IMG/VR virus record: IMGVR_UViG_2713896785_000012
Direction: 5' to 3' (one strand)
DNA from: a virus
Lineage: Duplodnaviria; Heunggongvirae; Uroviricota; Caudoviricetes
DNA: 16,021 nt
Part shown: positions 337 to 582 of the stretch, in pieces
Layout: each line of letters begins with the position of its first letter
How positions within the stretch are numbered: the stretch's first letter is position 1
Made by a program: the position numbers and the translations under genes
Notes under the pieces: generated by a model
What the model was told of the DNA's origin: nothing
Databases searched by the model: none
Seen by the model: the letters and a program-made list of their open reading frames with translations, nothing else

Positions 337-376
337 TCTGTCCCCCTCTCCTGTCTGATGTCTGAATCTGTTTATG

Positions 377-410
377 CCCCAAAAACGACAGGCACCCCGG
401 AGGGTGCCTG
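377..410 (-). terminator. Intrinsic-terminator-like hairpin plus U-run on the coding strand, 41 nt upstream of the J start
   Basis: On the minus strand CAGGCACCC-tccg-GGGTGCCTG (9-bp perfect stem, plus coordinates 389..410) is followed by TCGTTTTTGGGG. Confidence 0.4.
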
Positions 411-544
411 TGTCATGACGGAATAAAATTTCTGAATTTCTTCACATTTTCTGTACGCCCCCGTGGCAGATATCATTCCCGGGCGTTACAGTTTTTTCGG
501 GCCAATAAAAACAAAACTCCCTGTGGTTAATCTTCATTTTCTGT

Positions 545-577
545 TCCCGCAGCCTCCATACACTGCGGGATTTTTTT
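545..577 (+). terminator. Plus-strand-oriented terminator-like hairpin with a T7 tract, abutting the gene I stop codon
   Basis: tCCCGCAG (545..552), 10-nt loop, CTGCGGGa (563..570), then TTTTTTT (571..577) on the plus strand. On the minus strand the hairpin is preceded, not followed, by the homopolymer, so the orientation is plus-specific. Confidence 0.3.
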
Positions 578-582
578 ATGCT

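Follow-up and report, generated by a model that had tools for sequence, protein, structure and literature searches.

Examining the 16,021-nucleotide viral sequence IMGVR_UViG_2713896785_000012 (Caudoviricetes; this whole stretch is hereafter called the window), we found that the non-coding spacer separating tail genes I and J very probably represents a moron-like insertion that carries a seed-variant small RNA (sRNA) gene of the PasB/EcOnc22-24 family, oriented antisense to the tail genes, alongside a terminator in the leader of J. The spacer occupies positions 337-582 (246 bp), exactly where the initial annotation had drawn it, its limits being fixed by translation, at one end by the I stop codon and at the other by the GTG that starts J; in the identical locus of E. 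coli O157:H7 PV15-279, the Prokaryotic Genome Annotation Pipeline (PGAP) gives the same I and J boundaries and places nothing between them. The predicted sRNA spans 499-577 on the plus strand (79 nt), as delimited by spacer homology, by its fold and by alignment of its 5' end to published reads starting GCCUGAAAAAUAACUCC. A small RNA in the spacer had been one of several suggestions made from the letters, and it holds up, relatives of the predicted RNA having been detected experimentally as PasB and EcOnc22-24.

The first of these relatives comes from enteropathogenic E. coli (EPEC) E2348/69, where PasB is annotated at NC_011601 1466343 to 1466261 on the minus strand (83 nt), with E2348C_1436 and E2348C_1437 on either side, antisense to each (Table S6, PMC8550237; the note column for PasB is empty). 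We located the I stop of that genome at 1466255 and the J start at 1466496, which places PasB inside the I-J spacer, the distance between its 3' end and the I stop being 6 nt, and this spacer aligns with window 337-582 over its full length, both hairpins included. The northern probe used for PasB, AATCCCGCAGTGATCGCGGAGCT (PMC8550237), is the complement of the stem at window 546-569. PasB, which belongs to prophage PP6, thus shares with the window RNA the I-J site, the antisense orientation, the terminator stem with its U7, the upstream box and the -10 elements, and it is of similar length (83 versus 79 nt), while the 5' end, the seed core (UUCAC versus CUGUG) and the terminator loop differ; identity between the two RNAs is about 76% in a global comparison. 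PasB is Hfq-dependent, with a log2 fold change of -6.8 in an hfq deletion, and has 37 partners by RIL-seq (sequencing of ligated interacting RNAs; PMC8550237).

The second set of relatives comes from enterohaemorrhagic E. coli (EHEC) Sakai, in which EcOnc22 (prophage Sp15), EcOnc23 (Sp14) and EcOnc24 (Sp11) were reported as plus-strand RNAs of about 85 nt by northern blot that are bound by Hfq and destabilised without it (Tree et al. 2014, PMC4104026). Genes I and J lie on the minus strand in Sp11, Sp14 and Sp15, and the three I-J spacers are identical to one another. The EcOnc22-24 halves of hybrids from RNase E crosslinking, ligation and sequencing of hybrids (CLASH) read GCCTGAAAAATAACTCCATAACGTTAATCTTCA, which is the plus strand of this spacer (table of Waters et al. 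2017, PMC5286369), and they begin at a G that aligns with the annotated 5' end of PasB and with G499 of the window. We regard this table as decisive for both the strand and the identity of EcOnc22-24 as PasB-like RNAs. The Sakai coordinates of the 2014 and 2017 tables are those of NC_002695.1, offset from NC_002695.2 by +135 to +142 at 1.27-2.9 Mb; AgvB and AsxR, located with Rfam, were shifted by about +140 and the EcOnc22-24 reads by +135 to +137. After this correction the peak from Hfq crosslinking and analysis of cDNA (CRAC) covers the PasB-like RNA, and an assignment of EcOnc22 to the terminator on the minus strand was rejected as a product of unshifted NC_002695.1 coordinates, which point to the wrong hairpin.

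The Sakai RNAs agree with the window RNA in site, strand and architecture, at about 75% identity, and differ in the seed core (AUAAC versus CUGUG). In the CLASH hybrids, pairing with the coding region of yjbJ involves the Sakai stretch equivalent to the window seed, CCAUAACGUU; predicted pairing energy with yjbJ is -22.7 kcal/mol for the Sakai RNA and -13.7 for the window variant, so that this pairing would be lost in the window. Judged by their sequences and position, PasB and EcOnc22-24 are alleles of one family, of which the window holds a third. We did not find this equivalence stated in the published accounts of either, and a 2026 preprint on the Pas sRNAs (Zhu, Shabalina and Storz) does not mention EcOnc. 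Expression, size, Hfq dependence and RNA partners are known for these relatives from the literature, and by analogy the window variant would be expressed as well.

To place the window RNA within this family, we scanned viral contigs twice, once anchored on a conserved block and once on the terminator, which yielded about 180 loci and 75 distinct cassettes. The plus-strand hairpin with its T7 tract at 545-577, noticed in the initial annotation as a possible stop for antisense or convergent transcription, was kept in every homologous spacer examined, and it is the terminator of the PasB-family sRNA that runs antisense to the tail operon. Its stem pairs UCCCGCAG (U545-G552) with CUGCGGGA (C563-A570) across a 10-nt loop (553-562), followed by U571-577, the last of which falls 5 nt ahead of the I stop codon; a simple terminator scan had passed it over solely because its loop exceeds 8 nt. 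Folded singly, all 75 distinct cassettes end in a hairpin and U-run: the stem (U)CCCGCAG/CUGCGGG(A) recurs in 70 of them with at least 15 different loops, and the remaining five carry a longer, different stem (CUCCCGU.../...ACGGGAG) that still folds. The features that mark the family's terminator, namely the stem, at least six U and an end a few bases before the I stop, are all found at window 545-577. Upstream of this hairpin the body of the predicted sRNA folds as unstructured and, from conservation in the 75 cassettes, contains a probable seed region at 515-537 made up of AACUCC (515-520), a variable core CUGUG (521-525) and GUUAAUCUUCAU (526-537). The core differs by allele (the window has CUGUG, Sakai AUAAC and E2348/69 UUCAC) between conserved flanks, AACUCC on one side and GUUAAUCUUC(A/G)U on the other.

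The region upstream of the sRNA was evaluated in the terminator-anchored cassettes, a set whose composition is independent of the upstream sequence. It possesses an invariant box at 423-449 on the plus strand, centred on 438.5 and composed of an A-tract (423-428), TCTGA (431-435), six bases (N6), TCACA (442-446) and TTT (447-449). Of 86 unique cassettes, 84 show the arrangement TCTGA-N6-TCACA; no variation is seen at 431-435 and 441-449, and 436-438 and the next 20 bases vary. Downstream lies a -10 hexamer, TACAGT (TAnnnT), at 487-492 (T487 and A488 100%, T492 95%), which stops 6 nt short of the base that aligns with the start of the EcOnc22-24 reads and of PasB as annotated, and which fits a 5' end at 499. 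Conserved GT(G/A)GC stands 18 bp upstream of this hexamer across the cassettes, and the corresponding GTGGCA at 463-468 of the window, with G463, T464, G466 and C467 conserved at 87-100% in an otherwise variable stretch, is a candidate -35 element. A further -10-like hexamer, TATCAT at 471-476 (TATAAT or AATAAT in relatives), is conserved at A472 (94%), T473 (94%), A475 (100%) and T476 (98%). Window 423-492 has every conserved position of the promoter module of the family, as defined in 84 unique cassettes, that is, the A-tract, TCTGA-N6-TCACATTT, the -10-like hexamers and their fixed spacing. We observed in addition that 471-476 sits 16 bp upstream of the fitting -10 and could serve as a second promoter, in which case the RNA would measure about 95 nt; another possibility is that the downstream hexamer of the pair acts as a sigma70 pause element, as at lambdoid PR'. 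TTCACA was rejected as a -35 element by its 24-bp spacer.

The invariant box resembles a binding site for CRP, in that TCTGA-ATTTCT-TCACA-TTT matches the core TGTGA-N6-TCACA at 9 of 10 positions, with a perfect right half TCACATTT and flank. Its centre lies at -60.5 from position 499, a start site placed by alignment. The classical class I position of CRP is near -61.5, or further upstream at, for example, -71.5. The two growth conditions compared in the EPEC work are, we presume, LB (lysogeny broth) for the non-activating one and glucose-containing DMEM (Dulbecco's modified Eagle medium) for the activating one. PasB was higher in the non-activating than in the activating condition (Pearl Mizrahi et al. 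2021, PMC8550237). That the box places the sRNA promoter under CRP control is a tentative proposal that we hold to be possible and somewhat doubtful. A Cra site in the box was discarded, as the Cra core TGAA is not conserved (TGAG and TGAT variants occur).

Several results weigh against the identification of the spacer as a PasB-family gene driven by this promoter. A BLAST comparison of the 83-nt PasB with the window matched nothing beyond two pieces of 17 and 25 nt, both from the 3' half (E = 6e-5 and 0.015), and because of these short pieces the membership of the window in the PasB group rests on the whole-spacer alignment and on synteny. Rfam 15 at the gathering threshold matched no family in the whole 16-kb window, and a permissive search of 300-640 gave only sub-threshold terminator look-alikes (anti-hemB, NsiR1 and TCV_H4); as a control, the same search detected AgvB (RF02702), AsxR (RF02703) and STnc100 (RF02076) in Sakai loci. 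Column-by-column covariation of the sRNA stem was absent from a MAFFT alignment in which the stem is invariant and hence uninformative, and RNAalifold on the 75 cassettes found no consensus structure, the five variant terminators being misaligned. As to the promoter, the CRP-like core has an invariant C where CRP prefers G, and chance alone would give 0.52 matches of such quality in 16 kb, for which reason the case for CRP rests on the invariant half-sites and the variable spacer between them, together with the indirect hint from the higher PasB level in the non-activating condition. The 471-476 hexamer, moreover, is strongly conserved yet unfit for the mapped 5' end. Finally, the EcOnc22-24 rows of the CLASH table, yjbJ included, hold only 1-2 hybrid reads each, and the targets of family members are poorly defined, a 2021 review giving those of EcOnc22-24 as unknown.

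A more sceptical reading is that the spacer is merely a divergent J leader whose hairpins arose by chance and which gives rise to no independent transcript. The comparison with lambda bears directly on this. The initial annotation had taken lambda I and J to be contiguous, which proved wrong: lambda (NC_001416) has a 60-bp I-J gap at 15445-15504 with its own sense-strand hairpin, AAACCGCC-UGCG-GGCGGUUUU. This gap and its hairpin speak for the divergent-leader reading, as does the silence of Rfam, and because the gap is already present only about 190 bp of the window spacer is extra DNA relative to lambda. In two pathotypes, however, published northern, CRAC, RIL-seq and CLASH results, which already contradict a leader without a transcript, show that homologous spacers yield discrete RNAs dependent on Hfq, and the promoter and terminator elements are conserved while neighbouring bases vary. 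We therefore consider a chance-structured leader extremely improbable.

From the sRNA identification the following mechanism can be proposed for the window. The plus-strand promoter (-10 at 487-492, weak -35 at 463-468, CRP-like box at 431-446) would drive a 79-nt RNA, 499-577, that would end at the UCCCGCAG/CUGCGGGA hairpin and U7, be made from the repressed prophage, and be bound and stabilised by Hfq. It would most likely act in trans, its unstructured 5' body (AACUCC-CUGUG-GUUAAUCUUCAU) pairing with host or prophage mRNAs. The same RNA could instead act mainly in cis, as a complement of the late I-J transcript that provokes RNase III cleavage or head-on interference, tuning J or being titrated in lytic growth; it does overlap the sense transcript over its full length, and the cassette always takes the same site in the same orientation. 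We give this cis role a low probability, given that PasB has its 37 partners in trans and EcOnc22-24 form hybrids with yjbJ, that the tail genes are nearly silent in lysogens (base means of 3-15 versus 482-1082 for pasB), and that the diversification of the seed is hard to explain by purely cis action. Predicted pairing of the window sRNA with the J translation start was, in addition, no better than that of shuffled sequences.

We next considered how widely the spacer occurs. Among 5,426 complete E. coli genomes, 786 contain it, the median copy number per genome being 4 and the maximum 11, and many of these genomes are Shiga toxin-producing E. coli (STEC) or EHEC; strains with the exact spacer of the window include O157:H7 PV15-279 and O145 RM9872. 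It was also present in 147 phage records, mostly long-tailed Stx1/Stx2 phages such as BP-4795 and 1717. A 20-mer of the conserved block searched against genome contigs gave chance matches only, in high-G+C genomes. In the preprint mentioned above, PasB is described as the least diverse Pas sRNA and as usually single-copy (Zhu, Shabalina and Storz 2026); the short reach of PasB in BLAST (the 17- and 25-nt pieces), set beside the diverse and multi-copy set to which the window belongs, may explain that account, and BLAST-based surveys do under-count the PasB/EcOnc22-24 family.

Counting cassettes per contig strand revealed one in 155 cases, two in 9, three in 3 and four in 9, some of the contigs being truncated. 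Each cassette of a tandem array has its own box, promoter with -10, body, terminator and U-run and a different seed, and the box is found in internal cassettes too. The largest example, contig L054 in our numbering of viral contigs (IMGVR_UViG_2534681673_000010, minus strand, ~12170-13080), has a 907-bp I-J spacer with four pasB-like cassettes, and tandem-array spacers were also seen in L032, L058, L059, L073, L100, L106, L110 and L112; arrays with different seeds were not described in the PasB literature examined. Viral contigs with the E2348/69 type of PasB (L135, L139, L141, L143-L146, L149, L154, L159 and others) showed a further arrangement, in which the sequence upstream of the box is not the J leader and is instead another segment with a hairpin GAAACCCCGGUAUC...GAUACCGGGGUUUUC, indicating an extra insertion between pasB and J.

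One could extend these patterns to a picture in which the spacer between I and J serves lambda-like tails as a dedicated docking site, occupied by sRNA cassettes of modular make-up that keep a promoter, a terminator and an invariant, possibly carbon-source-responsive operator (possibly CRP-cAMP) and diversify a 5-nt seed, giving each prophage different host targets. The arrays and the seed diversity are observed, and to these the picture adds a common regulation and distinct target sets by conjecture; we think it rather unlikely as a whole. If it were true, PasB and EcOnc22-24 would be two alleles of a far larger family than reported. For the window itself the outcome is mostly confirmation, since its sRNA gene is of an already described kind and not a new type of element. 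What is new here is the placement of a widespread STEC variant in the family, the link between PasB and EcOnc22-24, a promoter model around an invariant CRP-like box, and a defined seed region. Prophage sRNAs rewire host regulation in EHEC and EPEC.

The second hairpin of the spacer faces the other way. On the minus strand, which is the sense strand of the tail operon, a terminator scan, folding and conservation identified an intrinsic terminator at 382-411, whose stem, capped by a tetraloop, spans 388-411 and is followed by CG and U5 at 382-386; the initial annotation had recognised this hairpin and U-run, placing them at 377-410. The stem has 10 bp, seven of them G-C pairs, and gives the spacer its strongest fold (z-score -3.9; 0 of 200 shuffles folded as well). 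Like the plus-strand hairpin in the 75 cassettes, it was retained in every homologous spacer examined, here all 39 distinct J-proximal variants, including a compensatory change from C:G to U:A. Among intermediates of the stem, six unique variants have G.U on the minus-strand RNA versus one with a C.A mismatch, and because the compensatory and G.U changes pair on the minus-strand RNA, selection acts on the sense-strand hairpin. Each spacer holds one minus-strand terminator, always adjoining J, even in four-cassette arrays.

By analogy with lambda, the better reading of this element is a J-leader terminator that would act against stray, non-antiterminated transcription in lysogens; in lytic growth, Q-modified polymerase would be expected from general lambda biology to read through it. 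The hairpin in the lambda I-J gap is likewise G+C-rich, has a tetraloop as well as a U-run, and lies on the sense strand shortly upstream of the J ribosome-binding site; it differs from that of the window in showing no sequence similarity and in sitting in a 60-bp gap with no antisense sRNA cassette. The lambda hairpin lies about 25 nt upstream of J and is terminator-like; we found no discussion of it and no study of its function in the literature searched. Between the window's sense terminator and the J Shine-Dalgarno region we also noted two copies of the heptad TGTCTGA (352-365), of which an alignment of spacer variants showed 2-4 copies in other prophages, such that the length of the J leader varies in 7-nt steps.

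The strength of this minus-strand hairpin also invites the possibility that the main product of the spacer is a second sRNA, one that would start in the variable region at about 464-470 (for example from a near-palindromic -10 at 471-478), end at 388-411 plus U5, measure about 66-85 nt and diverge from pasB. Consistent with such an RNA, the terminator that is the strongest fold of the spacer follows A/U-rich AAAUUUUAUUCC, as in Hfq-binding sRNAs, the compensatory and G.U changes point to selection on the minus-strand hairpin, and the conserved hexamer reads AATGAT, CATTAT or AATTAT on the minus strand, which is -10-like. Tree et al. dropped peaks less than 100 bp from a same-strand coding sequence and could have missed it (PMC4104026). 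The block at 423-449, however, is also present in internal cassettes that do not have this terminator, and for that reason is to be assigned to the pasB promoter instead of a minus-strand RNA. For the intergenic region of E2348C_1436/1437, the EPEC RIL-seq table of interacting RNAs lists nothing on the sense strand, and lambda, which does not carry the pasB cassette, has a hairpin at the same place, marking it as a backbone element of the J leader. We thus judge a second sRNA to be quite unlikely, and prefer the antisense PasB-family gene as the product of the spacer with the minus-strand hairpin as a terminator for J.

A coding function was evaluated through the small minus-strand open reading frame (ORF) of the spacer, MKINHREF..., which the initial annotation had placed at about 451-549 with 32 codons and a poor ribosome-binding site. 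It runs from an ATG at 535-537 to a stop at 442-444 (442-537, 31 amino acids), and the doubt expressed there was warranted: among 60 spacer variants, 8 have ACG instead of the ATG, lengths vary between 8 and 54 amino acids, and the frames diverge after about 8 codons, on which grounds we judge it non-coding. A protein-coding moron, with the 31-codon ORF translated and the 388-411 hairpin as its terminator, would be in keeping with an ORF and a downstream terminator that both lie on the operon strand and with the first four codons, MKIN, being kept in many variants, some with synonymous differences. This conservation is explained by the conserved seed block of the sRNA, which lies on the opposite strand and of which the ORF start is the complement. 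The ribosome-binding site is weak and partly inside a hairpin, and Ribo-seq supplements on small genes of Sakai list nothing where the Sakai copies are estimated to lie, a weak piece of evidence as the locus is repeated in that genome. With start, length and frame all unstable, a translated moron seems very unlikely. A toxin-antitoxin system of type I was set aside as well, as the ORF product MKINHREFCFYWPEKTVTPGNDICHGGVQKM has no hydrophobic character, 8 of 60 variants have lost the start codon, and neither length nor frame is conserved.

The cassette nevertheless fits the idea of a moron-type insertion that had been raised for the spacer, with an RNA and not a protein as its cargo. A lambdoid moron, as described by Juhala et al. 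(2000, as cited in PMC4104026), has an autonomous promoter and a factor-independent terminator, lies between conserved genes and is expressed from a repressed prophage. On that cited description, the window unit is similar in having its own promoter elements and terminator between conserved phage genes and in being absent from lambda at this site, and it differs in that it carries a non-coding RNA as cargo, runs opposite to the operon in orientation, and has relatives with up to four tandem repeats.

Compared with other prophage RNAs, the window sRNA resembles the anti-sRNAs AgvB and AsxR, other sRNAs of the PR' moron site and HnrS (EcOnc10-12), all of which are short, Hfq-dependent, multicopy sRNAs of lambdoid prophages in EHEC and EPEC in which the 3' terminator is conserved and the 5' pairing region varies. 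They are found in the early late-gene region or else downstream of PR', not between I and J, and the Rfam models for AgvB, AsxR and STnc100 have no match in the window. HnrS, a multicopy 66-nt RNA, was set apart by coordinates only, which put it at other Sakai prophage positions, and EcOnc54 was dismissed as a further I-J sRNA, as it sits between a regulator gene and an antirepressor gene. In Sakai Sp10 (L006, 228-420) and Sp5 (L007, 223-428), downstream of PR', STnc100 directly abuts AgvB and AsxR in an orientation convergent with each, a published pair that served as a control.

The genes around the spacer are those of a lambda-like tail, all on the minus strand, with the tape measure gene at 2581-5823 followed by M, L, K and I. 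Gene I (583-1164; stop codon 583-585) ends in ...GKVVVIGRQG*, matching the ...GQVVVIGR* of lambda I, and the PGAP coding sequence 5419-6000 of the identical PV15-279 locus maps onto it. The 5' part of the tail-tip gene J covers 1-336, with its GTG at 334-336; its product starts VGKGGGKAHTPVEAKDNLKSTQMMSVI, matching the N-terminus of lambda J (MGKGSSKGHTPREAKDNLKSTQLLSVI), and PGAP names it gpJ in the identical locus. Direct reading of the leader places a J Shine-Dalgarno region, GGAGAGGGGGA, at 341-351 on the minus strand, probably positioned 5 nt upstream of the GTG. Runs of masked N at 205-254, 650-699, 954-1015 and further on hide parts of J, I and K, and yield spurious long ORFs in the mechanical list, for example 576-941 and 463-1650; the former, which lies in another reading frame, was rejected as an artefact of these runs.

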